Source: Paracoccaceae bacterium
GTDB taxonomy: Bacteria > Pseudomonadota > Alphaproteobacteria > Rhodobacterales > Rhodobacteraceae
NCBI GenBank assembly: GCA_029247845.1
Contig: JAQWKM010000121.1
Coordinates: 1 to 61,005, forward strand
Reading direction: 5' to 3'
Length of the DNA: 61,005 nucleotides
Position numbers and translations under genes: made by a program. Shown here one piece after another: positions 9,658 to 31,885 of this stretch (within the stretch, counting starts at the first letter, position 1; each line of letters begins with the position of its first letter). The notes under the pieces were generated by a model, which saw only the letters and a list, made by a program, of their open reading frames with translations, was not told where the DNA came from and made no database searches.

Positions 9658-9669
9658 GTTTAATAGACT

Positions 9670-9695: not shown

Positions 9696-9718
9696 GACAA
9701 GAAAACGGACTTTAAGTA

Positions 9719-11807: not shown

Positions 11808-12814
11808 AGAAACCGCTAATTTTTATGGATCCATTTCCGCGTAACCAGTCCATGGTATTTACTTCTGATTGCGCCGCCGCACTCGGTCAAATGGGTGATA
11901 TTGTTGCACATTGGGGATCACGTGCACCTGATGAATTGGTGGAACAGCATTTGGCAGATATTGCTATCATCATTGGTCAGACTGCAATGCCAAAAGAGCG
12001 TTTAAACCGCGCCCCCAACTTACGCGCGATACTCAATGTGAAAGCCAATTGGGAACCAAATATAGACTATGAGGAGTGTAATGCGCGAGGCATCCATGTT
12101 CTTAGTGCCGCTCCTGCTATGGCCCCGGCAGTTGCAGAATATTGCATTGGTCAGGCGATTATGCTGCTTCGTGGATTGCATAAAGCAGATAAATTGTTTC
12201 GGTCTGGCGAGGAGTCTTACGGAATTGCTGGCAATCAGGATGCAAAAAGCCTTTATGACGCAGATGTTGCCCTAGTAGGATATGGAAATCTGGGACGGTC
12301 CTTGGCGCCATTGCTTCAGCCCTTTGGCGTGCGTTTGATGGTGCATGATCCATGGTTATCAGATGGATATCTACGCGCGGAGGGCGTGGAGCCAGTAACA
12401 CTTGCGACAGCATTAAGTAATTCTGACGTTCTATTTCTGCTAGCAGGGGTAACTGCCGAAAACGAAGGGTTTTTGGATCGTTCACGATTGGGAACAATTC
12501 GACCAGATGCCAGCGTGATATTGGCCTCCAGAGCTGAAATCGTCGAATTTGATGATTTTCTAGAGCTTGCAGCGGATGGTAAGTTCCGAGCAGCCATCGA
12601 TATTTTTCCACAAGAACCAGTGCCAGCAAGCAGTCCCTATCGTAGGGTTCCAAATGTGCTTTTTTCCTCTCATCTTGCCGGTGGATTGAATGCCTCATAT
12701 GGCAGAATACGCGAGTCGATGTTGGATGATATAAGTCAAATTCTTAAGGGATTACCACCTTTGCGAATGCAAATGGCCAATCCAAAGCTAGCAGCGAAAA
12801 TGCGAAGCCGATGA
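11804..12814 (+). CDS. D-isomer-specific 2-hydroxyacid dehydrogenase family protein
   Basis: The ATG at 11804 overlaps the permease stop in an ATGA arrangement. The longer track ORF from 11696 would run inside the permease gene. Motifs are 'VALVGYGNLGRSLA' (GxGxxG), 'RAAIDIFPQEP' and 'SSHLAG'. Confidence 0.85.
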   Translation: MKKPLIFMDPFPRNQSMVFTSDCAAALGQMGDIVAHWGSRAPDELVEQHLADIAIIIGQTAMPKERLNRAPNLRAILNVKANWEPNIDYEECNARGIHVLSAAPAMAPAVAEYCIGQAIMLLRGLHKADKLFRSGEESYGIAGNQDAKSLYDADVALVGYGNLGRSLAPLLQPFGVRLMVHDPWLSDGYLRAEGVEPVTLATALSNSDVLFLLAGVTAENEGFLDRSRLGTIRPDASVILASRAEIVEFDDFLELAADGKFRAAIDIFPQEPVPASSPYRRVPNVLFSSHLAGGLNASYGRIRESMLDDISQILKGLPPLRMQMANPKLAAKMRSR

Positions 12815-12830
12815 AACAGGATTTTCTTTG

Positions 12831-13919
12831 ATGACCAAAATTCAGCTTAAAGACATCCGCAAATCTTATGGTGACGTAGAGGTTATTCACGGGATCAATC
12901 TGGATATAGCCTCAGGCGAATTTTGCGTATTTGTCGGTCCGTCGGGCTGCGGAAAATCAACACTTTTGCGCATCATTGCAGGGCTTGATGACGTAACCGA
13001 GGGCACGGTTGAGATAGATGGGGTGGTGGTGAATTCGGTAAGTGCGTCTGAACGTGGTCTGGCGATGGTGTTCCAATCATACGCACTCTATCCTCACATG
13101 AGCGTCTATAAAAATATGGCGTTTGGACTTGAAAATGCTAAAGTTCCCAAAGCTGAAATTGAGCGCCGCGTACGTGACGCGGCCGAGATGCTGCAGATGT
13201 CCGACTATCTACAGCGAAAACCGAAAGCCTTGTCAGGTGGACAGCGCCAGCGCGTTGCAATTGGGCGGGCTATAGTCCGTAATCCAAGAGCCTTTTTGTT
13301 TGATGAACCTCTGTCCAATCTTGATGCCGAATTGCGCGTAACGATGCGCAAAGAGCTCGCGGCACTACACGCCAAAATTGGCGATACTATGATCTATGTC
13401 ACCCATGATCAGGTTGAGGCGATGACTCTAGCCGATAAAATTGTTGTATTACAAAATGGATCGATTGAACAAATTGGGGCGCCTCTGGACCTATACAATA
13501 ACCCACAAAATGTTTTTGTAGCAGGGTTCATCGGGTCGCCTAAGATGAATTTAATTCGTGCAACTGTCATAGAGGGCGCTGATGGCTTGACCCTGACGGG
13601 TCCGAATTTGTCAGTATCCATTGGACAAGTTGAGGGTATTGTTGACGGTGATATTTGCACCTTGGGAATACGTCCTGAACATATAGAAATCGTCTTGGAG
13701 GGCACTGGTCATATCGCCACAGATGTGGCTTTTGCCGAACAATTGGGCGGGGAGGCATATCTTTATTGTGATGCTGCAGGACTTCCTCAGATAACCGTAC
13801 ATCAGCAGGGGCAATTACCAATTGTGAAATCTCAAAAAGTCGCTCTTAAGTTTGACACCGCGCGAATGCATTTGTTTGATGCAAATGGTCAAGTCATTTC
13901 TCAGAGACATACCTCATGA
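12831..13919 (+). CDS. Sugar ABC transporter ATP-binding protein (MalK/UgpC family)
   Basis: It has Walker A 'GPSGCGKST', the signature 'LSGGQRQRVAIGRA' and Walker B 'FLFDEPLSNLD'. A C-terminal regulatory/TOBE-like domain is present. Confidence 0.93.
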   Translation: MTKIQLKDIRKSYGDVEVIHGINLDIASGEFCVFVGPSGCGKSTLLRIIAGLDDVTEGTVEIDGVVVNSVSASERGLAMVFQSYALYPHMSVYKNMAFGLENAKVPKAEIERRVRDAAEMLQMSDYLQRKPKALSGGQRQRVAIGRAIVRNPRAFLFDEPLSNLDAELRVTMRKELAALHAKIGDTMIYVTHDQVEAMTLADKIVVLQNGSIEQIGAPLDLYNNPQNVFVAGFIGSPKMNLIRATVIEGADGLTLTGPNLSVSIGQVEGIVDGDICTLGIRPEHIEIVLEGTGHIATDVAFAEQLGGEAYLYCDAAGLPQITVHQQGQLPIVKSQKVALKFDTARMHLFDANGQVISQRHTS

Positions 13920-14947
13920 GCGGCAAAATTGGCATAGCGGTGGTTGGTGTTGGCATGGCTGCAAAACCGCATGCGCTGGCAATGAAAGATCTGGAAGATG
14001 TACTTGAGGTCAGGGGGGTCTATTCCCGCTCACAAGACGCGCGTTCTAAGTTTTGCCAGATGTATGATTTTCCCGAGTCAAGGGATCTGGACGCATTAGC
14101 ACAGGATCCTAGAGTTGATGCGCTATTACTGATTACGCCACCAGACGCGCGATCTCAGATAGTCTCTTTGTTTGCCTCACACGGTAAACATATCCTGAGC
14201 GAAAAACCTTTAGAACGGACTGTGGAGAATGCCGAAGACATTGTAAAAATCTGCGAAACGGCGGGTGTATCGCTTGGTGTGGTTTTTCAACATCGGTTTC
14301 GCGCAGCGTCTGAAATTTTGCTCGATAAGCTTTCTCAGGGAAGCTTTGGCGCCATCCATGTGATCCGTGCCGAGGTTCCTTGGTGGCGTGATCAGGACTA
14401 TTATGATGAAACTGGTCGTGGTTCTTATGATCGCGACGGTGGCGGTGTTCTGATCAGTCAGGCGATACATACGCTAGACTTGATGCTGCAAATGTCTGGT
14501 CCAGTGAAATCGGTACAAGCCATGTGCGCAAAAACGCCGTTCCATCAGATGGAAGCAGAGGATGTGGTGGCTGGTGCGTTCAAATTCGAAAATGGTGCAA
14601 TTGGATCTCTCTTTGCAAGCACGGCATGTTTTCCAGGGGGCGCTGAAAGCTTAACTTTTGAGTGTGAAAAAGCTTCTTTAAACCTAAAGGCTGGGATTTT
14701 AAAAGTAGATTGGCGTAATGGTCAAAGCCAAAGTTTTGGTGAAAAGGCCCAGACTGGTGGTGGTGCTGACCCGATGGCATTTCCTTATGAATGGCACAAA
14801 TCACTTATTGCAGACTTTGTCGATGCAATCAAAAAGGGTAGACAACCTCGTGTTACAGGCGTTCAAGCTCTCGCAGTCCAACGGTTAATCAGAGCGATCG
14901 AGATAAGTTCACGCGAAGGCAGACAGATCGTATTAAAAGAAGGGTAA
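13916..14947 (+). CDS. Gfo/Idh/MocA family oxidoreductase (paralogue 2)
   Basis: The start overlaps the ATPase stop (ATGA). Motifs are 'IGIAVVGVGMAAKPH', 'SEKPL' and 'GGGVLISQAIHTLDL'. It resembles the 6988-8049 product. Confidence 0.85.
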   Translation: MSGKIGIAVVGVGMAAKPHALAMKDLEDVLEVRGVYSRSQDARSKFCQMYDFPESRDLDALAQDPRVDALLLITPPDARSQIVSLFASHGKHILSEKPLERTVENAEDIVKICETAGVSLGVVFQHRFRAASEILLDKLSQGSFGAIHVIRAEVPWWRDQDYYDETGRGSYDRDGGGVLISQAIHTLDLMLQMSGPVKSVQAMCAKTPFHQMEAEDVVAGAFKFENGAIGSLFASTACFPGGAESLTFECEKASLNLKAGILKVDWRNGQSQSFGEKAQTGGGADPMAFPYEWHKSLIADFVDAIKKGRQPRVTGVQALAVQRLIRAIEISSREGRQIVLKEG

Positions 14948-14951
14948 GTTA

Positions 14952-15977
14952 ATGAGAAACCTCACACTGGGCGTCGTTGGTGTCGATCACAGACACATCT
15001 TTGGACAATTGGGCAAGATGCTGGAGCTTGGATGCACATGCAAGGGGTGGTGGACTGAAGGTAATCCTGAGCCAGTTGCAGGCTTTTTGCAGCGCTTTCC
15101 AGACGTGCCGCGGGTTGCAGACCGAGATAGTCTCCTACAGGACCCGGAAATAGATATGATACTCATCGCTGATGTTCCCGCCCGTCGGGCTGCACGTGCG
15201 ATTGAAGCAATGCAAGCAGGCAAAGATGTGATGACAGATAAGCCAGGTTGCACCACATTGGAACAGCTCGATAGTGTCAAAGCCTGCGCTGCTGAAAACG
15301 GGCGCATATGGTCCATAGACTTTTCTGAGCGGTTTGAAGTGCCTGCAGTGACCCGCGCCGCTGAATTGATTGCCGAGGGTCGTATTGGCAAAGTTGTGCA
15401 AACGGTTGGCCTTGGACCACACCGTCTTAATCGTCCCACGCGGCCGGACTGGTTTTTTAATGAGGCAGACTATGGAGGCATTCTCACTGATATAGCATCC
15501 CATCAGATTGATCAGTTTTTATTTTTTACCGAATCAAACGATGCAGAAATCGTCTCCTCGACTGTCGCAAATTTTGCAAATCCTTCTGATACTGGTTTGC
15601 AGGATTTTGGAGAGATCAACATACGATCTGACCAAGGCCTAGGTTATATTCGAGTTGATTGGTATACCCCTGACGGTCTCCCAACATGGGGAGATGGCCG
15701 CCTAACAATACTTGGAACTGAAGGCTATATCGAACTGCGTAAATATGTTGACGTGGCTGGCCGGGAAGGTACTGACCATGTGTTTGTTGTGAATGGGGAT
15801 GCCTGCGAGTATATCGATGCCTCCAATTCCGCTCTACCTTATTTTGAACAGCTTATTGGCGATGTGATACACCGAACCGAGACGGCTATGCCGCAGGCAC
15901 ATTGTTTTAAAGTCATGGAGATTGCTCTAAAGGCGCAAGCGCAAGCCGTCCGGTTAGGTGCTCTAAGCAAAGCTTGA
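14952..15977 (+). CDS. Gfo/Idh/MocA family oxidoreductase (paralogue 3, divergent dinucleotide motif)
   Basis: It has 'LGVVGVDHRHIF' in place of a canonical GxGxxG, plus 'TDKPG' and 'GGILTDIASHQIDQF'. It begins 4 nt after the upstream gene. Confidence 0.8.
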   Translation: MRNLTLGVVGVDHRHIFGQLGKMLELGCTCKGWWTEGNPEPVAGFLQRFPDVPRVADRDSLLQDPEIDMILIADVPARRAARAIEAMQAGKDVMTDKPGCTTLEQLDSVKACAAENGRIWSIDFSERFEVPAVTRAAELIAEGRIGKVVQTVGLGPHRLNRPTRPDWFFNEADYGGILTDIASHQIDQFLFFTESNDAEIVSSTVANFANPSDTGLQDFGEINIRSDQGLGYIRVDWYTPDGLPTWGDGRLTILGTEGYIELRKYVDVAGREGTDHVFVVNGDACEYIDASNSALPYFEQLIGDVIHRTETAMPQAHCFKVMEIALKAQAQAVRLGALSKA

Positions 15978-16049
15978 AATTGGTTATCCCATTTCACGAA
16001 GCATGAGTTTTACGAGTTACCTGATAAGTGCCTTGCTGTAGCATGGTTT

Positions 16050-17846
16050 TTATTTTGGCTGATCGTCTGTGAAATATGTTTGATAGGCTTCAGCCAATGC
16101 TGAGAAGCCTAACTTTTTAGTGTTTTTATCAGCGGCAATAACGCCTTTAAGATTCCAACCGCGCTGGTGTTGGGTCTGTCGCCTATCCGTTCGAAAGTCG
16201 TATAATATCCAAATTGATGTTCCAACAATATAGTCGGTTTGGGCCGCTAATTCGATTTGTCGTGTCAGGACTGTCGCTTGATATTCTTCGGTAAATAGCT
16301 GTGTTTCGGGACCGTGCAAACCGGCTAGAGCATCGGCACCAGTTTCGGAAATGATCACTGGCTTATCTGGCTTTGAACTTTTTAAAAGTTGCTCCAGCCC
16401 TTCAAACCCGGGTTCGTACCATCCAAAATACTGGTTTAACCCAATCACATCCAGATACGCGGTTAGCCTGTCTTCAATCTGGAACTTTTCACGGTTTATC
16501 AGGCAGGCAGCGGTAATGAGGCGTGAAGGATCCTTCTGTCGTGCTGTCTCTGCTAGGCGGCGCATAAACAACAAGCGCTCATCAGTATCGGCGTTTTCGT
16601 TGCCAATGCCCCATAGAATGACACTAGCGCGGTTGGCATCACGCCTGATCAATTCCAAGAGTTGATTTTTGGCATTTTCATAGGTAGCTTTCCGATCAAA
16701 CTGGATCGCCCAATAAACTGGGATCTCTTCCCATAATAAAACACCCATCTCATCTGCGATCTCAGCGACACGTTCGTGGTGGGGGTAGTGCGAAAGACGT
16801 GCAATATTAGCACCAAGTTCGCGCAAATGCTTAAACCGACGCCGTATGTCTACTTCATCGGAGCATTTGCCTTGTTCTCTATCTTCTTCATGAACTCCAA
16901 TCCCTCTTAACCAAAGCGGATTACCATTTAAATATAGGCTTGTTCCACGCCGTTCAATATGGCGAAAGCCCACTCGGTCAAAAACTATATCCTTATCAAA
17001 GCTGACTGATACGTCATAAAGCTTTGGGTCATGGGGCGACCACAATTTTGGTTTGGCCTTAATTGTTACGCTCGCGGTTCCGTCTCTAACTGCGATGTCC
17101 TCGCAATAAAGTCCTGCGATATCAATTTTGGCAACCCCACTTTGTGGCGCTGACAATGTCAGATCAACCCTAACCCCGTCTGTCGTAAGGTGGATAAGAA
17201 AATTGGTGATGTGTAGCTTTGGAATTTTTACCAATTCTACATCCCGATAAAGACCGCCATGATTAAACCAATCCGTGTGATGCATTGGCACTGCATCTGC
17301 GCGGCGAGAGTTATCGACCTCAATCATGATCAGATTTTCACCTTGCATGAGATGGTGCGTAATATCGGCAAAAAATGGTGTAGATCCTCCAATATGGAGG
17401 CCGCAAAAATGACCATTTAAGAAAATACGCGCGCGTTCGTTTGCCGCGCCCACCCGAAGAAATAGTTGCTCATCATCTTTAGGGGGCTCGGCCACAAATG
17501 TGCGAGAATACCATGCCGCTCCCTCAAAACGATGCCATTCGGCCTGCTGGGTTGTCCAGCAGCTTGGCACAGTTGCCATCTGCCACGCGCCGTCATCATA
17601 ATCACGCGGTATAGTCCAATTCTCAATTGGTTGAGAATCATTTTCAAGCCACCTTTGTCGCAATCCTTCGCGCATTGGGTCGATAGTGAACCTCCAATCT
17701 CCGTTAAGCGATTGGACATCGCGGCCACCCATGAAAATCAGGCTTTCAGCAGTCAGCAAAGGCTCCATGAAAGGGGCCTCAAACTCTTCTTCGTGCAGGT
17801 GCCAATAAGGATCTAATCCATCTTCGAATTGAGACTTTTCTTTCAT
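16050..17846 (-). CDS. Glycoside hydrolase family 2 (beta-glucuronidase/beta-galactosidase-like)
   Basis: The 598-aa size and layout match GH2 GUS-type enzymes. Motifs are 'FLNGHFCGLHIGGSTPFFADIT', 'SHYPHHERVAEIADEMGVLLWEEIP', 'WGIGNEN' (acid/base region) and 'ISETGAD' (nucleophile region). There is no signal peptide. Confidence 0.85.
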   Translation of the reverse strand: MKEKSQFEDGLDPYWHLHEEEFEAPFMEPLLTAESLIFMGGRDVQSLNGDWRFTIDPMREGLRQRWLENDSQPIENWTIPRDYDDGAWQMATVPSCWTTQQAEWHRFEGAAWYSRTFVAEPPKDDEQLFLRVGAANERARIFLNGHFCGLHIGGSTPFFADITHHLMQGENLIMIEVDNSRRADAVPMHHTDWFNHGGLYRDVELVKIPKLHITNFLIHLTTDGVRVDLTLSAPQSGVAKIDIAGLYCEDIAVRDGTASVTIKAKPKLWSPHDPKLYDVSVSFDKDIVFDRVGFRHIERRGTSLYLNGNPLWLRGIGVHEEDREQGKCSDEVDIRRRFKHLRELGANIARLSHYPHHERVAEIADEMGVLLWEEIPVYWAIQFDRKATYENAKNQLLELIRRDANRASVILWGIGNENADTDERLLFMRRLAETARQKDPSRLITAACLINREKFQIEDRLTAYLDVIGLNQYFGWYEPGFEGLEQLLKSSKPDKPVIISETGADALAGLHGPETQLFTEEYQATVLTRQIELAAQTDYIVGTSIWILYDFRTDRRQTQHQRGWNLKGVIAADKNTKKLGFSALAEAYQTYFTDDQPK

Positions 17847-18002
17847 TTAATTTATACTCTTTTACCAAGGTCAAATCATTGCCGAGAAGATTTCAGTTTG
17901 AATATGCTCACTAGGGGAATAGGTCCTTGCCCTTTTATCGTTGGATCACTGCTAAAGGCATTTTGCGTGAATGCTAAGAGAGGGTGTAGTGTTATGATGC
18001 AT

Positions 18003-18518
18003 TTATAAAGCACCTAACTCCCGAAAACGTCCGGCAAAAAATGTCAACGCATTGCCTTCCCGCATCTCCACATTCTCAACTTCTCCAACCATAATAATGT
18101 GATCTCCACCGGGGTAGATTGCACTTTTTTTGCATTCAAATCGGGCCAGACAGTTTTCGATCAGTGGAACACCGCGGATATTTTTTTTGGTCTCAGAATC
18201 TTCAAATGCGAAGGGTGATTTTACGAAATTATTACAGATGTTTTCCTGATTTGATGCAAGAATATGTATCGCAAAATACTCGGCTTTTTCAAAAAACTCA
18301 AAACGCCGTGATTCAATTGCAGGAGACCAAAGAACCAGAGGAGGATTAAGTGAAAGTGATGAAAAGCTATTTGCCGTTATCCCCACTGGACCTTGACCTG
18401 ACGCGGCGGTGACGATTGTGATACCGGACATAAAGCGGCTGAAAGCATCCCTCAACATTCCATTATTATCTTGGTCTGGTTTGAACTGAGTTACCATGCC
18501 TCGCCCACAATCTGCCAT
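18003..18518 (-). CDS. NAD(P)H:flavin reductase (HpaC/flavin_reduct domain); SmoA-like by context
   Basis: It has 'FMSGITIVTA...GITANSFSSLSLNPPLVLWS'. The length is 171 aa. Its ATG directly abuts the stop of the upstream AKR gene. Confidence 0.85.
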   Translation of the reverse strand: MADCGRGMVTQFKPDQDNNGMLRDAFSRFMSGITIVTAASGQGPVGITANSFSSLSLNPPLVLWSPAIESRRFEFFEKAEYFAIHILASNQENICNNFVKSPFAFEDSETKKNIRGVPLIENCLARFECKKSAIYPGGDHIIMVGEVENVEMREGNALTFFAGRFRELGAL

Positions 18519-19409
18519 CTAGGCGACCTCCTGACCCAGAGCAGTCTGATAAAGTTGAAACCAGCTTTGTCTATCTAATTCAACTTTCAGAGCATTGGAA
18601 ATACGCGCGATCCGGTCAAGATTATTAGTCCCCAACACTGGTAGAATTTTTGCAGGGTGCGCCAATAAAAAGGCAACGGCCACTGCTGCACGGTCAACGC
18701 TGTGCTGCGTGGCAATATCATCCATGACTATCCCTAAGTTTGACATATTGGTCATCAAGCTTCCGCCACCCAAGGGCGACCATGCCATCATGGAATGGCC
18801 TTGTCTCTGGTGAAACGCCAGATCGCCGTTTGTGAATGGGGATATTTCAGCAAGGCTAATCTCAATCTGATTGGTGACTAGCTGATTTTTTGTTGCTGAT
18901 TGAAGTAAGTCCCAATCCCATGGCTTAAAATTTGAAACACCAATTGCGCCAACTTTTCCAGTTGCAACCAATTCATCCAGTGCTGCACCAGTGACATGAT
19001 GATCCATCAACGGATCGGGCCGATGGATGAGCAATAAATCAATATGTTCAATACCCATTTCTAAAAGTGACGCATTAACACACGCGTGAATATGATCCCG
19101 CGAAGTGTCATAGTGTTTTACAAGCGCACCAGCATGGCGACCTGCATCGACAACAATATTACACTTGCTAACGATTTCCATTTTTGAGCGCAACGCAGGA
19201 TTGGCTTTGAGCGCCCCTCCCAGAACTGTTTCGGCCGTGTAGCCGCCGTAAATATCTGCCTGATCAAAAGTTGTGATACCCTGATCCAATGCAGTTTGAA
19301 TTTTAGCTTCGACATGATTTGGTGACGTATTGGGATCATCGGCCAGACGCCACATTCCATAGATCAGCTGACTGAAATCAAGCGAGTCTGTGATTGAAAT
19401 ACGTTTCAT
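18519..19409 (-). CDS. Aldo/keto reductase; SmoB-like (6-oxo-glucose reductase candidate) by context
   Basis: It has 'FDQADIYGGYTAE', 'LLLIHRPD' and 'IGVSNF'. The length is 296 aa. Its start overlaps the monooxygenase stop by 1 nt (TAATG). Confidence 0.85.
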   Translation of the reverse strand: MKRISITDSLDFSQLIYGMWRLADDPNTSPNHVEAKIQTALDQGITTFDQADIYGGYTAETVLGGALKANPALRSKMEIVSKCNIVVDAGRHAGALVKHYDTSRDHIHACVNASLLEMGIEHIDLLLIHRPDPLMDHHVTGAALDELVATGKVGAIGVSNFKPWDWDLLQSATKNQLVTNQIEISLAEISPFTNGDLAFHQRQGHSMMAWSPLGGGSLMTNMSNLGIVMDDIATQHSVDRAAVAVAFLLAHPAKILPVLGTNNLDRIARISNALKVELDRQSWFQLYQTALGQEVA

Positions 19410-20563
19410 TATTTACGTTCTCCTGCGCCGAGTGGCGTCATTGGTGTTTCGTTAGGTACACGTCCGTAGGCATGGGGAAGTGAGCATGTCTCAAGCTCTG
19501 GCAAGACGCTGCGACCAAAATGCTCCGCCTCTTCAATATGTGGATAACCAGAAAAAATAAAGGAGCGCATGCCGATTTTTTTGTAACTCTCTATTTTTGA
19601 AAGTACTTGATCTCTTGACCCCACAAGGGCCGCGCCACAGCCCGAACGCGCGCGCCCAACCCCTGTCCACAAACTTGGTTCGATATAACCAAATTTATCT
19701 GCAAGATCACGGTTCTTGGATTGATGTGACACGCCCAAAGATGTTGAATCCAGCGCACGATCTCTTATCATTCTGCCATATTCATCATCAAGTTTTGCGA
19801 CAATATGCTCTGCATATTCTTTTGCTTCGACTTCTGTATCGCGCACAATCATATGGACGCGCAGGCCGTAATCTAATGTGCGACTATACTTTCTTGCAAC
19901 CTCATTGACGGCTTTCATGCGACCTTCAATATCCTCGATCTTTTCAGGCCACATCAGATAGACGTCACAGTGTTGACCGCATAATTCGAGCGCATCGGGA
20001 GAATAGCCGCCAAAGTACAATAATGGTCCACCCGCTTGATAAGGCTTAGCCGGATCAGTGGTGAGGCTTCTAAAATTATAGATTTCACCTTCATAGTCAA
20101 TTTTGTCTTGTGTCCATGCCTGTTTAAGAATTTCTACGACTTCCCGTGAACGGCGATAGCGAAATGCGCTGTCTTCCTTTTGTCCGGGAAAATCCGAGCT
20201 GATGATATTGACGGTCAACCGTCCTTCAAGCATGTGATCCAAAGTTGCTAGAGTGCGTGCCAACATGATGGGTTGCATCTCGCCACAACGCACCGCAGCG
20301 AGCATATTAATCTTGCTAGTAATCGGTGCACAACCGGCCACAAACGACAGCGTATCTTGCCCAACTTGATATGAAGATGGGCACAAAATATTACGAAAGC
20401 CTAGGTCTTCGGAAGTCTTTACGATTTTGGAACAATGCGCCCAGCTCGATCTTAAGTCGCCGTCTGGAATACCAAGAAATTGATAGTCATCCGAGCACAG
20501 AGCCGAGAACCAAGAGACTTCGGCGGCTTTAAGGTCTCTAGAGGTTATCGGCACGACGGTCAT
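19409..20563 (-). CDS. SsuD-family FMNH2-dependent sulfonate monooxygenase (LLM class); SmoC-like by context
   Basis: The 384-aa product is colinear with E. coli SsuD. Matching motifs are 'WFSAL..DYQFLG', 'LATLDHMLEGRLTVNII', 'PLLYFGGYSPDALEL', 'DVYLMWPE', 'LRVHMIVRDTEVEA', 'PSLWTGVGRARSGCGAALVGS' and 'FSGYPHIEEA'. Confidence 0.88.
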   Translation of the reverse strand: MTVVPITSRDLKAAEVSWFSALCSDDYQFLGIPDGDLRSSWAHCSKIVKTSEDLGFRNILCPSSYQVGQDTLSFVAGCAPITSKINMLAAVRCGEMQPIMLARTLATLDHMLEGRLTVNIISSDFPGQKEDSAFRYRRSREVVEILKQAWTQDKIDYEGEIYNFRSLTTDPAKPYQAGGPLLYFGGYSPDALELCGQHCDVYLMWPEKIEDIEGRMKAVNEVARKYSRTLDYGLRVHMIVRDTEVEAKEYAEHIVAKLDDEYGRMIRDRALDSTSLGVSHQSKNRDLADKFGYIEPSLWTGVGRARSGCGAALVGSRDQVLSKIESYKKIGMRSFIFSGYPHIEEAEHFGRSVLPELETCSLPHAYGRVPNETPMTPLGAGERK

Positions 20564-20615
20564 AATTTTCTCCAGAAGAATAACGCTTTACCTATTGCCT
20601 AACACTGTAAATGAT

Positions 20616-20636
20616 GTAGATCAATGGTGTATCAAT
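20616..20636. promoter_or_regulatory. Candidate operator: imperfect direct repeat in the divergent monooxygenase/GntR promoter region
   Basis: GTAGATCAAT (20616-20625) and GTGTATCAAT (20627-20636) match at 8 of 10 positions. They are spaced 11 bp centre to centre, inside the 89-bp divergent intergenic region. Confidence 0.25.
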
Positions 20637-20652
20637 TCTTATCTGTCAAACT

Positions 20653-21384
20653 TTGGGAAACGATCTTTTGTCAATCGACTACAAGCAAAAAAGCGCGAGT
20701 GCGCTACCTCGATTTATCCAAATTAGTGAATTTCTGGTCCGTGAGATTGCGGCTGGTCGGTTAGTTGATGGAGAGCGTCTGGCGCCCGAGAGAGACATGG
20801 CCAAAAGCCTTAATGTTTCCGTTGGCACGCTCAGAAAATCGCTCAAAGAGTTAGAAAAAATGGGGCTTCTTGAAAGCATCCAGGGCTCTGGGAATTACGT
20901 CCGTCAGAACCAGATCGATGGAAGCGTATATGCAATGTTTCGTCTTGAATTAATCAATGGAGGAGGGCTTCCAAAGGCTGATGTTTTAGATGTTTCCCTA
21001 CATGAAAAACCTCTAGATCTACCGAAATTTGGGGCTTCAAAAAGCGCTTCGCGGATAAGGCGGCTTCGTTATTTGAATGACACAATCATCGCTATTGAGG
21101 AAATTTGGCTTGATCAAAGTGTGGGCGTAATAGATTCGGTCGGAATTTCTGATTCGCTTTACCAGTACTATAGCAAGCATTTAGGTCTCTGGATCTCTCG
21201 GGCCGAGGACTATGTCGGCATAGGCAAAGTACCCGCTTGGGCGCCAGCAGCCTTTATCCTGTTACCGGGTACAATAACTGGCTTCATTGAAAGGTTTAGC
21301 TGGGGTTCCCAGGTGGCTCCAGTCGAATATTCGCGGACTTGGTTTGATACAAATCAGACACATTATGTACAAAGGCTTAAATAG
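20653..21384 (+). CDS. GntR-family transcriptional regulator (HutC subfamily, UTRA effector domain)
   Basis: It has the wHTH motif 'ERDMAKSLNVSVGTLRKSLKELEKMGLLESIQGSGNYV' and a C-terminal UTRA-like domain. It has a TTG start and is divergent from the monooxygenase operon. Confidence 0.85.
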   Translation: MGNDLLSIDYKQKSASALPRFIQISEFLVREIAAGRLVDGERLAPERDMAKSLNVSVGTLRKSLKELEKMGLLESIQGSGNYVRQNQIDGSVYAMFRLELINGGGLPKADVLDVSLHEKPLDLPKFGASKSASRIRRLRYLNDTIIAIEEIWLDQSVGVIDSVGISDSLYQYYSKHLGLWISRAEDYVGIGKVPAWAPAAFILLPGTITGFIERFSWGSQVAPVEYSRTWFDTNQTHYVQRLK

Positions 21385-21392: not shown

Positions 21393-22487
21393 ATGAGTAT
21401 GATAAATTATGGAATGATCGGTTGTGGGATGATGGGCCACGAGCATTTGCAGAATATAGCATTGCTTGAAGGCACCAATATATCAGTCATCTTTGAACCT
21501 GATTCAGGCATGGCAAGATCAGCTGTTGTGCTTGCACCTAACGCGATGTTAGTTCGTAGCTTGGATGAACTGTTAGAATTTTCCAATCTGGATTGTCTGG
21601 TCATTTGTAGCCCAAACTACTGTCACCTTGAACAAATGCAGCGTATTGCACAAAAAAATCCTCTTCCTTTGTTAGTTGAGAAGCCTCTTTTTACATCGTC
21701 TGATGATCAAATTGCGATTTTGGAATTTTCAAAGACCTATCCGGCACTGGTTTGGGTTGCGATGGAATATCGTTATATGCCCCCGATCGCGGCCTTTGTA
21801 GATAAAGTCGATAGTGTTACGGGCGGTGTTAAAATGCTCACAATCCGCGAGCATCGGTTTCCATTTCTCAAGAAAATTGGGAATTGGAATCGTTTTAACA
21901 ATAAAACAGGTGGTACATTTGTTGAGAAATGCTGTCATTTCTTTGATCTTATGCGCTTGATTATAAAATCCGAGCCGGTGCGCATCATGGCAAGTGCAGG
22001 ACAAGACGTTAATCACCTTGAGGAAAGATACGAAGGTCAGGTTCCGGATATCTTGGATAATGGTTATGTGCTTGTTGATTTTGAAAATGGTGCAAGAGCA
22101 ATGCTAGAGCTTTGTATGTTTGCCGAAGGTTCCCAGTATCAGGAAGAAATCTCTGCTGTTGGTACAAGGGGAAAACTAGAAGCAAAAGTGCCTGGCCCTG
22201 GCCGGTTCTGGCCCAAGGAATTGTGTGCGCCTCCGGTTCCACTACTTCTAGAAAGCCCGCGCTTTCCAAAAAGACCAGTGACAAGTGAGGTGGCTGTTGA
22301 TCCGACTATTTTGAACGCAGGTGATCACAATGGCGCGACATTCTACCAACACAAGCTATTCCTAGATATGGTCAAAGGGCAAAAAAGCGCTCCGGATGTC
22401 AGTTTAGGAGATGGGTATAAGGCTGTTATTATGGGGATGGCTGCTCAGGAAAGTGCTGCCACGGGTAGGACCGTAGAGTTTGATTAG
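21393..22487 (+). CDS. Gfo/Idh/MocA family oxidoreductase (paralogue 4), co-transcribed with the GntR gene
   Basis: It has 'INYGMIGCGMMGHEH', 'VEKPL' and 'GGTFVEKCCHFFDLM'. It begins 8 nt after the regulator stop. Confidence 0.85.
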   Translation: MSMINYGMIGCGMMGHEHLQNIALLEGTNISVIFEPDSGMARSAVVLAPNAMLVRSLDELLEFSNLDCLVICSPNYCHLEQMQRIAQKNPLPLLVEKPLFTSSDDQIAILEFSKTYPALVWVAMEYRYMPPIAAFVDKVDSVTGGVKMLTIREHRFPFLKKIGNWNRFNNKTGGTFVEKCCHFFDLMRLIIKSEPVRIMASAGQDVNHLEERYEGQVPDILDNGYVLVDFENGARAMLELCMFAEGSQYQEEISAVGTRGKLEAKVPGPGRFWPKELCAPPVPLLLESPRFPKRPVTSEVAVDPTILNAGDHNGATFYQHKLFLDMVKGQKSAPDVSLGDGYKAVIMGMAAQESAATGRTVEFD

Positions 22488-22579: not shown

Positions 22580-23533
22580 ATGATTGATCTTAACAAAACT
22601 GAAATTGTTGGGAACTTTGACTTTGACACTGCTGTCGACGCGATAAAGGACAGTTATATCGCCGCTTCGAACAAGGCTGTCACTTTGCCACCAGTGGGCC
22701 ACATTGAGTTTCCCCAATCGAATGGCGATTGTCATATTAAAGCTGGCCACATTCATGGCCAGTCGGCTTTTGTCATCAAAATTGCAACTGGATTTTACGA
22801 TAATCCAAAAAAGGGCCTTCCTTCTTCAAACGGAATGATGGTCGCCTTTAGCGCAAAGACTGGCGAACCTCTTGCTGTTTTGAAAGATGAAGGCTGGCTG
22901 ACCGATATGCGGACCGGAATTGGAGGAGCGCTGGCAACACGTGCGCTTGCACGGCCAGATGCCCGGCGCGTCTTAATTCTTGGAGCAGGGCTGCAATGCT
23001 TATTTCAAGCAGAGTGTCTTGAAAAGCTTTCACCTGAACCTTTGGACTATGTTGTCTGGGGCCGGTCTGTGCAGAAGGCTGAGATTGCAGTGAAACGGTT
23101 AGCGGACATTGGCCTAAAGGCACGAAGCGTGGAAAATCTTCAAGATGCAGTTGCCAATGCCGAGATCATAATAACGACGACACCCTCAACCAAGCCACTT
23201 ATTGTTTTAGATTGGGTGCGTCCGGGAACGCATATTACGGCCATTGGAGCTGATTGCCCGGGAAAGCAGGAGCTTGAGACGGATCTTGTTTTAAGCGCCG
23301 AACTGGCGGTGTGCGATTTAACTGGACAAAGTTTGGATCATGGTGAATTCCAACATGCGCACTCAAGTGGTAGATTATCTAATGTGGTCGAACTGGGTCA
23401 GGTCCTTAGCAAGGATCACTCTGGTCGACCATCCAAAGACGCAATTACAATCGCAGATCTGACAGGAATTGCGCCTCAGGATATTGCGATTACTGGCGCA
23501 GTGCTTGATGCGTTCACGGCAAGGTCTGAATAG
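22580..23533 (+). CDS. Ornithine cyclodeaminase / mu-crystallin family protein
   Basis: It has 'WLTDMRTGIGGALATRALA', 'VLILGAGLQCLFQAE', 'IIITTTPS' and 'GTHITAIGADCPGKQEL'. The length is 317 aa. Confidence 0.85.
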   Translation: MIDLNKTEIVGNFDFDTAVDAIKDSYIAASNKAVTLPPVGHIEFPQSNGDCHIKAGHIHGQSAFVIKIATGFYDNPKKGLPSSNGMMVAFSAKTGEPLAVLKDEGWLTDMRTGIGGALATRALARPDARRVLILGAGLQCLFQAECLEKLSPEPLDYVVWGRSVQKAEIAVKRLADIGLKARSVENLQDAVANAEIIITTTPSTKPLIVLDWVRPGTHITAIGADCPGKQELETDLVLSAELAVCDLTGQSLDHGEFQHAHSSGRLSNVVELGQVLSKDHSGRPSKDAITIADLTGIAPQDIAITGAVLDAFTARSE

Positions 23534-23553
23534 TAAGATACATTTTTTGAGGC

Positions 23554-24402
23554 TTAGTCCTCTAGCATTGCTTCCAACCCGGCTTTATAATCGGGATATA
23601 AAAGTGTGACCCCCAATTCCAATTTTATTCGGGTATTGTCCACTTTTTTATTTTCGGCATAAAAACTTCTGGCCATTGGGCTGAGATCGGCGTCGTCAAA
23701 GTTTACAATTGGTGGAAGTGGTAGCCCAAGTAGCTCTGCGGCGTAACCGATCACATCTTGGGGAGGCGCAGGGTCGTTGTCACAGACGTTATAAACTTGT
23801 CTCGGATTAGGTGCATTCAGTGAGGCAAGCAAAACTTGTGCAATATCATCCACATGGATGCGGCTGAAAACCTGTCCTTTTTTGATAATCCGCTTCGCTG
23901 TTCCACTTCGTACCTTGGAAAAGGGGCCGCGGCCCGGCCCGTAAATGCCTGCTAGCCGAAAAATATGCATTGGAAGGTCTGATATAGATTGCCAGCCTTG
24001 CTCTGCACTTAGTCGGAGTTGACCGCGTTTTGTCTGTGGGTTTAGCGGTGTTTCTTCATCAACCCATTGACCGTTAAAATCTCCGTAAACCCCTGTTGTG
24101 GACAAATACCCCACCCAATCTAGGTTAGCGGCATATTTTTCAAACAACTTGTTATACCGCAGAAAAACGGGATCGCCTTCCTCATTAGGACCAACTGATA
24201 TCAAAACTGCAGTTGCCTTAGAGAATGCCTCCTCGATCCCGCTATCTCCCCAAAGATAGGGTTCAATGCCCGTTTCGCCTAATTCGGGCAATTTATTTTT
24301 ATCGCGAGTCGTGCCACTAATCTTCCAACCTACTGGCAGTAGTCTATTAGCCAGAGCTTGTGCCGAATAGCCATGACCAAAAGAAAGTAAGTGCTTATAC
24401 AT
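23554..24402 (-). CDS. SDR/NAD-dependent epimerase-dehydratase family protein (atypical)
   Basis: The 282-aa product has an N-terminal 'LLSFGHGYSAQALA' motif (a degenerate Rossmann fold). It also has 'YLSTTGVYGD' and 'RLAGIYGPGRGPF', typical of this conserved alphaproteobacterial SDR group. Confidence 0.7.
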   Translation of the reverse strand: MYKHLLSFGHGYSAQALANRLLPVGWKISGTTRDKNKLPELGETGIEPYLWGDSGIEEAFSKATAVLISVGPNEEGDPVFLRYNKLFEKYAANLDWVGYLSTTGVYGDFNGQWVDEETPLNPQTKRGQLRLSAEQGWQSISDLPMHIFRLAGIYGPGRGPFSKVRSGTAKRIIKKGQVFSRIHVDDIAQVLLASLNAPNPRQVYNVCDNDPAPPQDVIGYAAELLGLPLPPIVNFDDADLSPMARSFYAENKKVDNTRIKLELGVTLLYPDYKAGLEAMLED

Positions 24403-24491
24403 AGAGGTAATTGGCCATGTAATTGAAAGAGTTTCAACCCAGAGCCAACATTTCTCTTGAATTTTGATAAAAAGATTGTTCGACTTTATCT

Positions 24492-25121
24492 ATGAGCGAT
24501 AAAAAACCAAGCCTTGAGTTAGCCTATTCTCTTAAATCGGTACAAGATAACCGCGAGCTTTATGCGGCTTGGGCAGAGGATTATGACCAAGAATTTGCAT
24601 CTGAAATGGATTATATTCTGCCCGGTCGCGTGGCCCAGATATTTCTGGATGTGGCTGGCAAAGGGCCTGTTCTTGATGTGGGAGCTGGTACAGGGTTAGT
24701 GGGTCATGCCCTTGCAAAACTGGGCTTACAGCCAATTGATGCGATGGATCTGTCACGCGCTATGCTGGATGTGGCGTCAAAAAAAGGGATTTACCGCAAT
24801 CTTTTTGCTGCTGATATTACTAAGCCGATAGAGATGGTTGGGGAAACTTATCAGGGGATCATATCGTCAGGGACGTTTACGCGTGGGCATGTTGGGCCGG
24901 GGGGCATTGACTACTTGCTGCCACTTGCTCAAAAGGGAGCATATTTTGTTTTGGCGATTAATAAAATCCATTGGGCTGAAAAAGGTTTTTCTGAAAAATT
25001 TGAGGCTCTAGTGGGGAGCATTTCAAAGCCTGTGATGTGCGATATTGAGATATATGGCAAAAATTCAAAAGGGGGCCACAGCAGAGATATAGGGATCGTT
25101 GTGATTTTTCAAAAGCTATAG
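24492..25121 (+). CDS. Class I SAM-dependent methyltransferase
   Basis: It has motif I 'VLDVGAGTGLVG' and post-I 'DAMDLSRAML'. The length is 209 aa. Confidence 0.8.
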   Translation: MSDKKPSLELAYSLKSVQDNRELYAAWAEDYDQEFASEMDYILPGRVAQIFLDVAGKGPVLDVGAGTGLVGHALAKLGLQPIDAMDLSRAMLDVASKKGIYRNLFAADITKPIEMVGETYQGIISSGTFTRGHVGPGGIDYLLPLAQKGAYFVLAINKIHWAEKGFSEKFEALVGSISKPVMCDIEIYGKNSKGGHSRDIGIVVIFQKL

Positions 25122-25348: not shown

Positions 25349-27049
25349 CTAAGTATAACTAATGATAAGCGAAAAGGCTAATAAAACAGCAATCCAAAGC
25401 GCCATAGCGCCCGTTGGTCGGACGCTAGATATCCCTGCTTCGGGACCGTATACTTTATGCAGTAAATTCAAAATTTCCGCAAAACCTGTTTTGACAAGGT
25501 TCGCGGCATCGTCCCATACAGAAGTAAATCCCTTGTAAAGTATAGCAGTAACATTTGGCAGAAATTTGCGATAAATCCAATCTGTGTCCAGATTAATAGC
25601 GCGCACTTCAGGTGGATGAATTCCTGTCTTCATCAAGAATGCAAAGGCTAAGAGGGCAAAACACAGCAGTTGTAGCTGTCCCACGACATGACCCATTGTA
25701 TATGGATGGAATTCGACCTCATAGGGCAAAAGCGCATAAAGTGGTTCCGGATATACTCCAATAAAGATGCATAAGAATGCAGTAAAACCCATTGCCAGTT
25801 GCATATTGATAGGTGCTTCTTTCGGGCGCAATCCGCTATCATGGCCAAAAAAAGTAAAATAGGGGATTTTAATGCCCGAATGGGACAGAACGCCTGCAGA
25901 GGCAAAAACGAGAATCGCCCAAATAATGGTGTAATGTTTTTCCGCTGAGGCATCGATAATCAGAGATTTGGTAACAAAACCCGAAAAGAGTGGGAAGGCG
26001 GAAATTGATGCGGCCCCGATCAAGCAGAAGATGGCTGTTCTGGGCATGGTCCGACATAAGCCTCCCAGTTCAGATGCTTTGCTCGTCCCCGTTCGGAAAA
26101 GAACTGCGCCAACACTCATAAAGAGCAGAGCTTTGTACAGAATATGGGCAAAGGCATGAGAGGCTGTTCCGTTCAATGCCATCTCGGTTCCAATACCGAT
26201 GCCGACGACCATAAATCCTAATTGATTATTAAGGCTATAGGCCAAAACCCGTCGTAAGTCGTTTTCTATTTCGGCAAAGAAAATTGGGAAAAGTGTCATT
26301 ATGGCACCGATATAAATGAGAATCTCAGTGCCAGCAAAGCCACGCGCCAAAGCATAAACCGCTAGTTTGGTTGTAAATGCCGAAAGGATCACTGTGCCCG
26401 TGACTGTCGCGGCAGGATAACTGTCTTGGAGCCAGTTGTGCAGGAAGGGAAAGGCACACTTCATACCGAACGACAAGAAGATTAGCCAAGTCCCAATCGA
26501 GCCAAGCGTCATTTGTTCAAATGCGATTGATCCTGTTTCGCGCCATATTAAAGCGGTCCCTGCCAGCAAGATGACGCCGGAGGTGATCTGGATTATTAGA
26601 TAGCGCAGGCCCGTTTGATAAGAGGCCTCTGTGCCTCTTGCCCAAATGAGAAAAACCGATGCAATAGCCGTTCCTTCCCAGTAGAAAAATAGCGTGACAA
26701 GGTCTCCAGCAAAAACGGCCCCAAGTGCCGAACCTGCATAAAATAGTGCTGCAAGTTGCTGAACTGTGTCTCGAACATGCCAAGCATAGAGGTTGCCCAA
26801 AAACGCTGCAAGGCAAAAGATCAAAGCAAACACACGAGAAAGCTTATCGACCCGCATCATATCCAGGGTTTGACCAAAAAGTTCGATCTGAGCAAACACA
26901 CCAACGGGTAAGTTATAGACCTGCCATCCAGCGAGGATCGGAATGAGAAGAGATATCGCAGACCGAATGCGCCCACTGGGCAGGAGAGCTACGATAATTG
27001 CGCCTGCAAAAAAGATAAAGGCCGTTGGAAGAATATCAAACATCGCCAT
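25349..27049 (-). CDS. mnhD: Proton-conducting antiporter-like membrane subunit (MrpD/NuoL-like, D3) with C-terminal amphipathic extension plus terminal TM
   Basis: It has the Proton_antipo_M core ('FLHNWLQDSYPAATVTGTVILSAFTTKLAVYAL', 'GTASHAFAHILYKALLFM'). The start is probably 'MAMFDIL' (27049), with GGAG upstream. The track ORF extends to 27088. Confidence 0.85.
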   Translation of the reverse strand: MAMFDILPTAFIFFAGAIIVALLPSGRIRSAISLLIPILAGWQVYNLPVGVFAQIELFGQTLDMMRVDKLSRVFALIFCLAAFLGNLYAWHVRDTVQQLAALFYAGSALGAVFAGDLVTLFFYWEGTAIASVFLIWARGTEASYQTGLRYLIIQITSGVILLAGTALIWRETGSIAFEQMTLGSIGTWLIFLSFGMKCAFPFLHNWLQDSYPAATVTGTVILSAFTTKLAVYALARGFAGTEILIYIGAIMTLFPIFFAEIENDLRRVLAYSLNNQLGFMVVGIGIGTEMALNGTASHAFAHILYKALLFMSVGAVLFRTGTSKASELGGLCRTMPRTAIFCLIGAASISAFPLFSGFVTKSLIIDASAEKHYTIIWAILVFASAGVLSHSGIKIPYFTFFGHDSGLRPKEAPINMQLAMGFTAFLCIFIGVYPEPLYALLPYEVEFHPYTMGHVVGQLQLLCFALLAFAFLMKTGIHPPEVRAINLDTDWIYRKFLPNVTAILYKGFTSVWDDAANLVKTGFAEILNLLHKVYGPEAGISSVRPTGAMALWIAVLLAFSLIISYT

Positions 27050-27386
27050 GTTCCATCTTCTCCAGCTGCTCTGGCGGATAATCTTCATGATCTATCGCGC
27101 TATCACCATAATAGTCCTCGGGACGCTGGATAAAAAACCGTAGCGATTTTGCGGCCAATATAAGCGCGGTAAACATTACAAACCCATAAAACCCATAAAA
27201 GCCTTTGTATTCTTCTACGGCAAAGTGCCCGTGTTTATGATAGGCAAAATCCGCTAGGAATAAAAGAATGCAGATCGCGATAAGGACCCCTACAATCGTC
27301 TTGGAATTCTTGGGATTTATAAACCATACCAGTAGCCGACCCAGCGCGGGGTTGTCTTCTGATTTATCTGAGGGGATATGATCCAT
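27036..27386 (-). CDS. Small two-TM membrane protein of unknown function embedded in the Mrp-like operon
   Basis: The ATG at 27386 is preceded by GAGGAG. The track ORF starts at 27413, inside the upstream gene. There are two hydrophobic helices ('IVGVLIAICILLFLADFAY', 'FYGFVMFTALILAAKSL'). Both termini are acidic. Confidence 0.65.
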   Translation of the reverse strand: MDHIPSDKSEDNPALGRLLVWFINPKNSKTIVGVLIAICILLFLADFAYHKHGHFAVEEYKGFYGFYGFVMFTALILAAKSLRFFIQRPEDYYGDSAIDHEDYPPEQLEKMEHGDV

Positions 27387-27396
27387 CAACTTCTCC

Positions 27397-28875: not shown

Positions 28876-28876
28876 C

Positions 28877-31828: not shown

Positions 31829-31885
31829 AGCAAACAGACTTATTTCAGTTAAATTTGCGATTTCAGGCCTACCTTTTTACTATCA

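Follow-up and report, generated by a model that had tools for sequence, protein, structure and literature searches.

A probable sulfoquinovose monooxygenase gene cluster with a GH188-type sulfoquinovosidase gene in an open-ocean alphaproteobacterial contig

Gene content and identity of the predicted enzymes

We consider here a 61-kb stretch of alphaproteobacterial DNA (contig JAQWKM010000121.1), to which we refer, at its full length, as the window. Within it we study five adjacent genes, named smoA, smoB, smoC, smoD and sqgA after their counterparts in the sulfoquinovose monooxygenase (sulfo-SMO) pathway, by which sulfoquinovose (SQ), a sulfosugar of plants and algae, is desulfonated and turned into glucose. 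Genes were called from a mechanical list of open reading frames (ORFs) together with Pfam searches. All five ORFs are intact. The genes smoC, smoB and smoA lie on the minus strand and are translationally coupled, and smoD and sqgA diverge from them on the plus strand (Table 1). At the smoC/smoB junction, position 19409, the sequence reads AAA TAATG AAA, so that the TAA stop and the ATG start share one A; at the smoB/smoA junction (18519/18518) it reads GCC TAG ATG GCA, and the start of smoA directly abuts the stop of smoB. A GGAG or AGGAGG box stands 8-12 nt 5' of every start. The Pfam matches (Flavin_Reduct, E = 1.8e-36; Aldo_ket_red, 2.1e-48; Bac_luciferase, 4.7e-50; plus GntR and UTRA) are far beyond chance.

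The ORF list, the Pfam matches and the two junctions, which can be read straight from the sequence, agree in this respect with the first-pass annotation of the region, which had described three coupled minus-strand genes facing a GntR/UTRA regulator. That annotation had drawn the module as ending at 21384, with the regulator. This boundary falls short, since sqgA, a Gfo/Idh/MocA-family gene in the same orientation as smoD and only 8 nt 3' of it, also belongs to the module; the gene set had thereby left out the glycosidase, a role that SqgA would fill as a GH188 enzyme, rather than as a GH31 enzyme like SmoI of Agrobacterium. The G+C content of the window is approximately 46%, and the smo cluster shows no local anomaly relative to it; therefore there is no sign of a recent foreign origin of the cluster.

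Table 1. Features of the smo locus and of the adjacent ABC/Gfo/GH2 block (positions are those of the window).
Feature	Position	Strand	Length (aa)	Predicted product or remark	Evidence
smoA	18003..18518	-	171	NAD(P)H-dependent flavin (FMN) reductase, predicted to supply FMNH2 to SmoC	Pfam and synteny
smoB	18519..19409	-	296	predicted NADPH-dependent 6-oxo-glucose reductase (aldo-keto reductase)	7BBY/7BBZ match
smoC	19409..20563	-	384	predicted FMNH2- and O2-dependent sulfoquinovose monooxygenase, C-S cleavage to 6-oxo-glucose and sulfite	7OLF/7OH2 match
second conserved box	20594..20604	-		TGTTAGGCAAT; between operator and smoC start, possibly the -10 region
putative SmoD operator	20611..20636	-		ATTGAT-ACACC-ATTGAT-CTAC-ATCATT
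smoD	20653..21384	+	243	GntR/HutC-family regulator with UTRA effector domain; a second possible start, also TTG, lies at 20668
sqgA	21393..22487	+		predicted GH188 NAD+-dependent sulfoquinovosidase, SQ-glycerol to SQ and glycerol	8ZN9 match
Gfo/Idh/MocA gene	6988-8049
CUT1 binding protein	8380-9657
two CUT1 permeases	9719-11807
MalK-type ATPase	12828-13919
GH2 gene	16050-17846			beta-glucuronidase-like; 156 bp past smoA

The identification of the cluster is carried by the closeness of its proteins to characterised enzymes. Over residues 1-383, SmoC scores 692 bits against the structures 7OLF (E = 1.6e-207) and 7OH2 (E = 2.6e-207), which are the SmoC proteins of Agrobacterium tumefaciens (AtSmoC) and Rhizobium oryzae (RoSmoC), respectively (PMC8795539), and its identity to these two crystallised proteins is 75.5% and 76.5%. 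The next-best structures, those of SsuD and MsuD, reach only 176-183 bits, so that the SmoC match is 3.8 times higher. Against TIGR03565, the NCBI equivalog model for SsuD, the protein scores 230 bits, under the cut-off of 518.2, and it also remains under the cut-offs of the MsuD-like and SfnG models. By these scores the monooxygenase does not fall inside generic SsuD, the placement that the first-pass annotation had named as speaking against its reading. The protein passes the 60% identity cut-off of Ma et al., which was defined against the protein of Roseobacter denitrificans. The residues named for the flavin mononucleotide (FMN) phosphate gate and the sulfonate site of RoSmoC (Y136, S189, W206, R236, H238, Y341 and H343) are all seven kept, here as Y136, S188, W205, R235, H237, Y340 and H342.

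The aldo-keto reductase was likewise compared with SmoB, as the same annotation had proposed. It matches 7BBY and 7BBZ, two of the four structures of A. tumefaciens SmoB (the others being 7BC0 and 7BC1; PMC8795539), with E = 1.2e-119 and 61.5% identity. The catalytic tetrad is kept (D49, Y54, K82, H129), as are R130, K98, W210, T261, N262 and R266; the glucose contacts (R152 and K120 in the published numbering), the nicotinamide-stacking tryptophan and the 2'-phosphate contacts are all retained. The sole change among the named residues is in the adenine-stacking phenylalanine, F241 in the published numbering, which is M219 here. Because smoB adjoins smoC with an overlap of 1 nt, the two lie within the 10 ORFs of each other by which sulfo-SMO clusters have been delimited (PMC13372026).

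The assignment of SmoA rests on family and synteny, since no SmoA structure exists. Besides having a Flavin_Reduct domain, the protein shares 54.5% identity with its counterpart in the Ruegeria sp. TM1040 cluster, and by its position it is presumably the partner of SmoC.

SqgA matches the structure 8ZN9 with E = 6e-159 and 62.5% identity, and 8QC2 and 8QC3 with E = 5e-100 and 1e-98. The latter two are FlSqgA (Flavobacterium) and ArSqgA (Arthrobacter), the NAD+-dependent sulfoquinovosidases that founded GH188, and the paper of Ma et al. 2025, in which RdSqgA of R. denitrificans was characterised, has 8ZN9 as its single deposited structure. The catalytic residues are kept, K97, Y126, E178 and H182 aligning with K98, Y127, E179 and H183 of RdSqgA. 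The sulfonate triad R155/L159 (backbone)/K161 aligns with R156/L160/K162 of RdSqgA and R166/L170/K172 of ArSqgA, and is lacking from the three remaining Gfo/Idh/MocA proteins of the window. The protein therefore has all the features used to recognise GH188, namely the Gfo/Idh/MocA fold, the catalytic Lys/Tyr/Glu/His and the sulfonate triad. No GH31 domain was found among the window's ORFs of at least 150 aa. Judged by sequence, the cluster includes a sulfoquinovosidase gene, which is of the GH188 type and not of the GH31 type, and through it the locus pairs an SQ monooxygenase with a sulfoquinovosidase, the combination used by Sharma et al. 2022 (PMC8795539) to recognise such clusters.

Conserved gene order and the smoD-smoC intergenic region

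For comparison we scanned one genome per species, which returned at least 574 relatives, and retained the 80 best, with SmoC identities of 79-92%. These loci, labelled L001 and so on, come from marine Rhodobacterales, Roseibium/Labrenzia and unclassified alphaproteobacterial metagenome-assembled genomes (MAGs). According to tblastn and ORF clustering, nearly all 80 carry the core sqgA<-smoD|smoC->smoB->smoA. A smoA homologue follows smoB in approximately 70 of them by tblastn (49 group together under the stricter ORF clustering); smoD is divergent from smoC in 67 clustered loci, and sqgA adjoins smoD in 63. The closest genome, L001 (CAJWEI010000004.1), is an unclassified Tara alphaproteobacterial MAG whose SmoC is 92% identical, and the exact SmoC protein of the window was found on a Tara Oceans scaffold.

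SmoD contains a GntR domain (PF00392, E = 1.1e-11) and a UTRA domain (PF07702, E = 6.4e-16), which places it in the GntR/HutC subfamily. The ORF list starts it at a TTG, giving the length in Table 1, and the public call on the identical Tara scaffold starts five codons later and gives 238 aa. Between smoD and smoC lies an operator-like site of 26 nt, composed of two direct ATTGAT repeats and an inverted copy, which overlaps a TTGATC hexamer resembling the -35 element of a smoC promoter. This hexamer sits inside the second ATTGAT repeat, 17 nt upstream of a TA..CA box; we therefore infer a promoter overlapped by the site of a HutC-type repressor. SmoD is most likely that repressor, predicted to act at the ATTGAT repeats over the smoC promoter. 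A search of full-text literature found no paper treating SmoD, sulfoquinovose and GntR together.

The site is sharply conserved. In an alignment of the smoD-smoC intergenic regions, the almost invariant AAAATTGATACACYATTGATCTACATCAA is common to all 78 of the 78 loci that have both genes. Approximately 6 bases beyond it comes TGCTACGCAAG, which corresponds to the second box of Table 1; its consensus is TGcTAcGCAAG, with a per-column conservation of 80-99% in 71 distinct intergenic sequences. When the 80 smoC loci are scanned for the operator-like site, 71 pass at no more than 6 substitutions. A 21-nt core of the operator has one copy in the window, against 0 expected by chance, and a 17-nt core occurs once, at the smoD-smoC intergenic site, in 14 of 17 other loci scanned. 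An additional weak match to the core, with 3 mismatches, lies inside smoB in L028, and L128, which has no smoC, contains the core only as a weak match, again with 3 mismatches. The operator-like sequence AATTGATACACYATTGATCTACATCA may serve as a regulon marker for the predicted regulation by SmoD.

Transport, accessory genes and the adjacent ABC block

In 45 of the 64 smoC loci with enough flanking sequence for comparison, smoA is followed by the dctQMP genes of a tripartite ATP-independent periplasmic (TRAP) transporter, which Ma et al. proposed as the importer of SQ or SQ-glycerol. In 39 smoC loci the TRAP genes are followed in turn by a gene for a di-haem, cytochrome-c-peroxidase-like (CCP_MauG) protein, approximately 6 kb downstream of smoC (L003, L004, L010 and others; L162, 12787-15048), and in Ruegeria TM1040 this gene precedes one annotated as a "putative sulfate exporter family transporter"; the two may form a sulfite-handling pair. 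A second marine transporter linked to smo genes is an ATP-binding cassette (ABC) system of the CUT1 family with a GH13 alpha-amylase-family gene, similar to that of HIMB11, which lies downstream of smoA in L028, L042 and approximately 7 other loci and co-occurs with TRAP in Tateyamaria. Its binding protein was considered as a possible relative of SmoF, the binding protein of the A. tumefaciens importer, and was rejected for want of any likeness. According to a 2026 review, the uptake of SQ substrates by aquatic bacteria is largely unknown.

At the place where the TRAP genes normally stand, directly downstream of smoA, the window carries instead a different set of genes, to which we refer as the block. 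It spans 6988-17846. Nearest to smoA is the GH2 gene; beyond this lies a convergent operon encoding a binding protein, two permeases, a 2-hydroxyacid dehydrogenase, a MalK-type ATPase and two Gfo/Idh/MocA proteins, and a third gene of the Gfo/Idh/MocA family is found at 6988-8049. No terminator was detected between smoA and GH2, where the scan did no better than on shuffled sequences, and no further copies of the operator were found ahead of the ABC block or GH2, even when 3 mismatches were allowed. The first-pass annotation had cited a CUT1 sugar importer a few kb away in support of its reading. The importer exists (8380-13919), but it is not an orthologue of SmoEFGH: a search of the Protein Data Bank sequences with its binding protein returned only generic ABC sugar-binding proteins and, at E <= 1e-3, no match to 7OFY or 7NBZ. 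It gives weak support at best to that reading: its binding protein does not resemble SmoF, the closest relative has lost the block but kept smoCBA, and elsewhere the block occurs with hexuronate genes.

To assess how widely the block is distributed, we scanned metagenomes with the Gfo gene at 14952 as the anchor; this yielded 80 contigs, 35 of them of at least 10 kb. The block proves to be a widespread marine operon, usually accompanied by UxuA, UxaC, UxuB, an FCD-type GntR regulator and an alpha/beta-hydrolase, and sometimes by GH2; elsewhere, then, it behaves as a hexuronate or glucuronide module. GH2 scores 567 bits against the beta-glucuronidase structure 6NCY, and, when aligned with it, has the NE acid/base glutamate, the SETG nucleophile and an N-x-K motif, features with a role in carboxylate recognition in beta-glucuronidases. 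As a default, we reject the idea that GH2 is a beta-sulfoquinovosidase: it has the hallmarks of a beta-hexuronidase, it stands in the hexuronate block of contigs that have no SQ genes, and none of the other 80 smoC loci has it.

The block also meets SQ genes repeatedly. Among the 64 comparable smoC loci it is present in 5, never together with TRAP. Conversely, SQ genes lie on 8 of the 80 block-centred contigs, in at least 5 arrangements; of the 35 contigs that reach 10 kb, 4 have such genes. Three AT-rich marine contigs among them carry a GH188 sqgA with an intact triad adjoining members of the block: in L147 (1-3196) and L116 (9810-11847) this gene neighbours one for an SftI-like SQ isomerase, which scores 299 bits against NF048012, under the cut-off of that model, and which is accompanied in L147 by a LacD-type aldolase, and in L128 (3722-6827) it stands beside the alpha and beta subunits of sulfopyruvate decarboxylase. 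Such adjacency of the block to SQ genes is more frequent than would be expected of independent modules. In part it could be due to shared ancestry and to a tendency of algal-sugar genes to lie together.

Relatives of the window include L001 and the Tara scaffolds L081 and L083, and two of these contigs are informative on how tightly the block and the smo genes are joined. In L001, 12562-13456 corresponds to 6985-17500 of the window and the sequences are collinear on both sides; the whole ABC/Gfo block is gone, two GH2 fragments are left, and smoCBA is kept. The fragments imply that the block was ancestrally present and was then deleted. In L083 (TARA_B110000090_G_scaffold44547_1), 4780-4994 corresponds to 17913-19389 of the window, at 80-86% DNA identity. 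Here smoC is followed directly by GH2, the genes smoB and smoA being replaced by approximately 125 bp that include a 17-codon stub of the smoB N terminus, and the block is kept; this variant is either a natural deletion of smoBA or an assembly artefact. Since the smo module and the block are therefore separable, we do not count the block in the sulfo-SMO module.

The remaining neighbours touch the smo genes less closely. At 667-6893 lie genes for a DMSO-reductase-family molybdopterin oxidoreductase, a GcvT-family aminomethyltransferase, an iron alcohol dehydrogenase and an aldehyde dehydrogenase; the best NCBIfam matches of the aminomethyltransferase are a trimethylamine N-oxide demethylase and a dimethylsulfoniopropionate demethylase, both below the cut-off. 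In L001, smoA is directly adjoined by no fewer than three genes of this set, the last three, and by what is probably a truncated copy of the first. After sqgA, at 22580-25121, come an ornithine-cyclodeaminase/mu-crystallin family gene, an NAD-epimerase-like gene and an S-adenosylmethionine-dependent methyltransferase. Among the smo loci, L001 alone shares these three (85-88% identity), and they probably have no connection with SQ. An operon for a multi-subunit Mrp/Mnh-type cation:proton antiporter occupies 25349-33137 on the minus strand, in L001 too.

Interpretation and relation to known systems

By sequence comparison, SmoC, SmoB and SqgA are shown to be orthologues of biochemically and structurally characterised enzymes. 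We judge, with a probability of roughly 0.9, that the locus encodes the complete enzymatic core of the sulfolytic sulfo-SMO pathway, in a layout typical of marine Rhodobacterales and Roseibium. We infer the catalytic activity of these particular proteins, the uptake route and the fate of sulfite, along the following lines. SQ-glycerol or free SQ would enter the cell. SqgA, with tightly bound NAD+, would release SQ by transient oxidation at C3 and cleavage of the glycosidic bond; SmoA would reduce FMN with NADH; SmoC would use the FMNH2 and O2 to cut the C6-S bond of SQ, giving sulfite and 6-oxo-glucose; and SmoB would reduce 6-oxo-glucose with NADPH to glucose, which would then enter central metabolism. 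Transcription would proceed as two divergent units, smoC-smoB-smoA and smoD-sqgA, with SmoD held on the ATTGAT repeats, repressing, and let go once a sugar of the pathway, as inducer, occupies its UTRA domain.

Several observations weigh against this interpretation. The window contains no dedicated importer of SQ or SQ-glycerol of either accepted kind, since neither TRAP genes nor a SmoF-like binding protein of a SmoEFGH-type ABC system occur in its 61 kb. A cytochrome-c-peroxidase-like gene and a putative sulfate/sulfite exporter, both frequent in such clusters, are likewise absent from it. TRAP, GH31, sulfite dehydrogenase and TauE-type genes were sought elsewhere in the window and none was found, the only gene resembling a sulfur transporter being a distant one of the YeeE/YedE type ('Sulf_transp', 58221-59273). 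Furthermore, SmoA is assigned from family and position, and the related metagenomic contigs show a region in flux, one of them being without smoB-smoA. Importers differ among accepted sulfo-SMO clusters (PMC8795539), however, and so the absence of one does not exclude the window from membership.

It is important to distinguish the sulfo-SMO reading from two others that concern the same genes. The monooxygenase might be taken for a generic SsuD, the cluster serving to scavenge sulfur from aliphatic sulfonates in the SsuD/SsuE manner with an aldo-keto reductase adjacent by chance: its closest named NCBIfam model is indeed alkanesulfonate monooxygenase, and the RefSeq names of such genes are merely generic. 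Yet the 230 bits lie far under the equivalog cut-off, the SmoC score exceeds those of SsuD and MsuD several fold, no transporter of the SsuABC, TauABC or NitT/TauT aliphatic-sulfonate type occurs in the window, the aldo-keto reductase and the sulfoquinovosidase are fixed partners across approximately 70 genomes, and the characterised SmoC enzymes act specifically on SQ. We consider this alternative highly improbable, and the first-pass view of the locus as a sulfo-SMO-like desulfonation module rather than a generic ssu operon holds, on the SmoC and SmoB matches, the kept residues and the lack of such a transporter. Alternatively, the cluster could be an orphaned or decaying remnant, its enzymes encoded but growth on SQ prevented for lack of a dedicated importer or of sulfite-handling genes. 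The genes missing from the window (TRAP, SmoEFGH-like, cytochrome-c-peroxidase-like and exporter) and the deletions seen on both sides of smoA in related contigs would agree with decay; against it, the five ORFs are intact and tightly coupled, every catalytic residue checked is kept, the operator is perfectly conserved, and the 90-92% identity of SmoC, SmoB and SqgA to their counterparts in L001 indicates purifying selection. An importer could, moreover, be encoded elsewhere in the genome. A remnant therefore seems unlikely to us, if less so than a misread SsuD.

The block poses a separate question, namely whether it forms a functional part of the SQ locus, its ABC transporter replacing TRAP as the importer of SQ or SQ-glycerol, or else handling an anionic glycoside that occurs alongside, such as glucuronosyl-glycerol. 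Its occupation of the TRAP position, its mutual exclusion with TRAP among the smoC loci, and the block-centred contigs with SQ genes, including L147, L116 and L128, all speak for such a role. We nevertheless think it doubtful, since the weak structural relatives of the binding protein include none described as sulfosugar-binding, UxuA, UxaC, UxuB and the FCD-type regulator usually stand at the head or the flank of the block, GH2 resembles beta-glucuronidase, SQ genes are lacking in 31 of the 35 contigs of 10 kb or more from the block-centred scan, no copy of the SmoD operator precedes the block, and L001 and L083 have each dropped one of the two modules while keeping the other. A broader proposal, that the block is a partner of SQ catabolism that has so far gone unrecognised, across sulfo-SMO, sulfo-EMP2-like (SftI-type) and sulfopyruvate-decarboxylase neighbourhoods in unrelated marine lineages, we hold to be somewhat less probable still. 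If it were so, the block might serve as an alternative importer of SQ glycosides where a cluster has no TRAP genes, might handle SQ-glycerol and glucuronosyl-glycerol, the two anionic head groups of glycolipids, together, or might be a shunt in which 6-oxo-glucose is oxidised to glucuronate and passed on to UxaC, UxuB and UxuA. Literature searches returned no paper on 'glucuronide 3-dehydrogenase' and listed nothing on how bacteria break down glucuronosyl diacylglycerol.

The sulfo-SMO route allows the complete mineralisation of sulfoquinovose inside one cell, and the window provides what is probably an example of it from an open-ocean (Tara) alphaproteobacterium with low G+C. The assignments are also of use for annotation, as RefSeq labels such genes only 'LLM class flavin-dependent oxidoreductase', 'aldo-keto reductase' and 'Gfo-Idh-MocA'. 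TRAP-less clusters repeatedly adjoin one ABC/Gfo block, and because so little is known of aquatic SQ uptake, the block is a concrete candidate for it. Its association with SQ genes is the only potentially novel aspect of the locus, the rest being a well-surveyed marine GH188-type sulfo-SMO cluster.

Among known systems, ssuEADCB of Escherichia coli and msuEDC of Pseudomonas share with the window a two-component, FMNH2-dependent, luciferase-like monooxygenase and flavin reductase, as well as sulfonate-binding residues. They differ in that the window lacks a sulfonate ABC transporter, carries an aldo-keto reductase and a sulfoquinovosidase, and has a reductase of the HpaC/Flavin_Reduct type. SsuE, for its part, is flavodoxin-like. 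The published comparison puts SmoC at only about 30% identity to the alkanesulfonate monooxygenases. The sulfoquinovose dioxygenase (sulfo-SDO) pathway of Marinomonas and Alteromonas performs the same conversion of SQ to 6-oxo-glucose and sulfite and then to glucose, and in marine bacteria is often paired with GH188 or GH31 sulfoquinovosidases; its C-S bond is cleaved by SqoD, a dioxygenase dependent on iron and alpha-ketoglutarate, whereas here the flavin-dependent pair SmoC/SmoA would do so, and the domain searches of the window gave no dioxygenase.

The founding cluster is smoABCDEFGHI of A. tumefaciens C58 (Atu3277-Atu3285; PMC8795539). The first-pass annotation had taken its smoC-smoB-smoA and smoD as the model for the composition and order seen here, and the likeness stands: SmoC (75.5% identity) and SmoB (61.5%) agree, with their active sites kept, the flavin reductase and the GntR regulator stand in the same A-B-C-D order, and the predicted chemistry, from SQ to sulfite and 6-oxo-glucose and on to glucose, is the same. 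The two differ in their glycosidase, A. tumefaciens having the GH31 SmoI and the window the unrelated NAD+-dependent GH188 enzyme, and in transport, since A. tumefaciens has the SmoEFGH ABC importer and the window a CUT1 binding protein that does not match SmoF.

Closest of all is the type represented by R. denitrificans OCh 114, whose core has the same order and orientation, sqgA<-GntR|smoC->smoB->smoA; the SqgA of the window is 62.5% identical to 8ZN9. The megaplasmid of Ruegeria sp. TM1040 (NC_008043.1, 371.7-376.2 kb) has the same layout under generic RefSeq names, the comparison loci of this type carry the same operator-like site, and a marine planktonic source is shared. The Roseobacter type has TRAP DctQMP after smoA, where the window has the hexuronate-type ABC/Gfo/GH2 block, and it has the cytochrome-c-peroxidase-like and putative sulfate-exporter-family genes, which the window does not. 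The window is further set apart by its low G+C content and by having an unclassified alphaproteobacterial MAG as its nearest genome. Kaur et al. 2023 found GH188 genes to be near-universal in Roseobacter sulfo-SMO clusters, and Ma et al. 2025 showed that RdSqgA, encoded upstream of the R. denitrificans cluster, is active. The Roseobacter-type GH188 sulfo-SMO cluster has thus already been published (Kaur 2023; Ma 2025), and the window is a further member of it.

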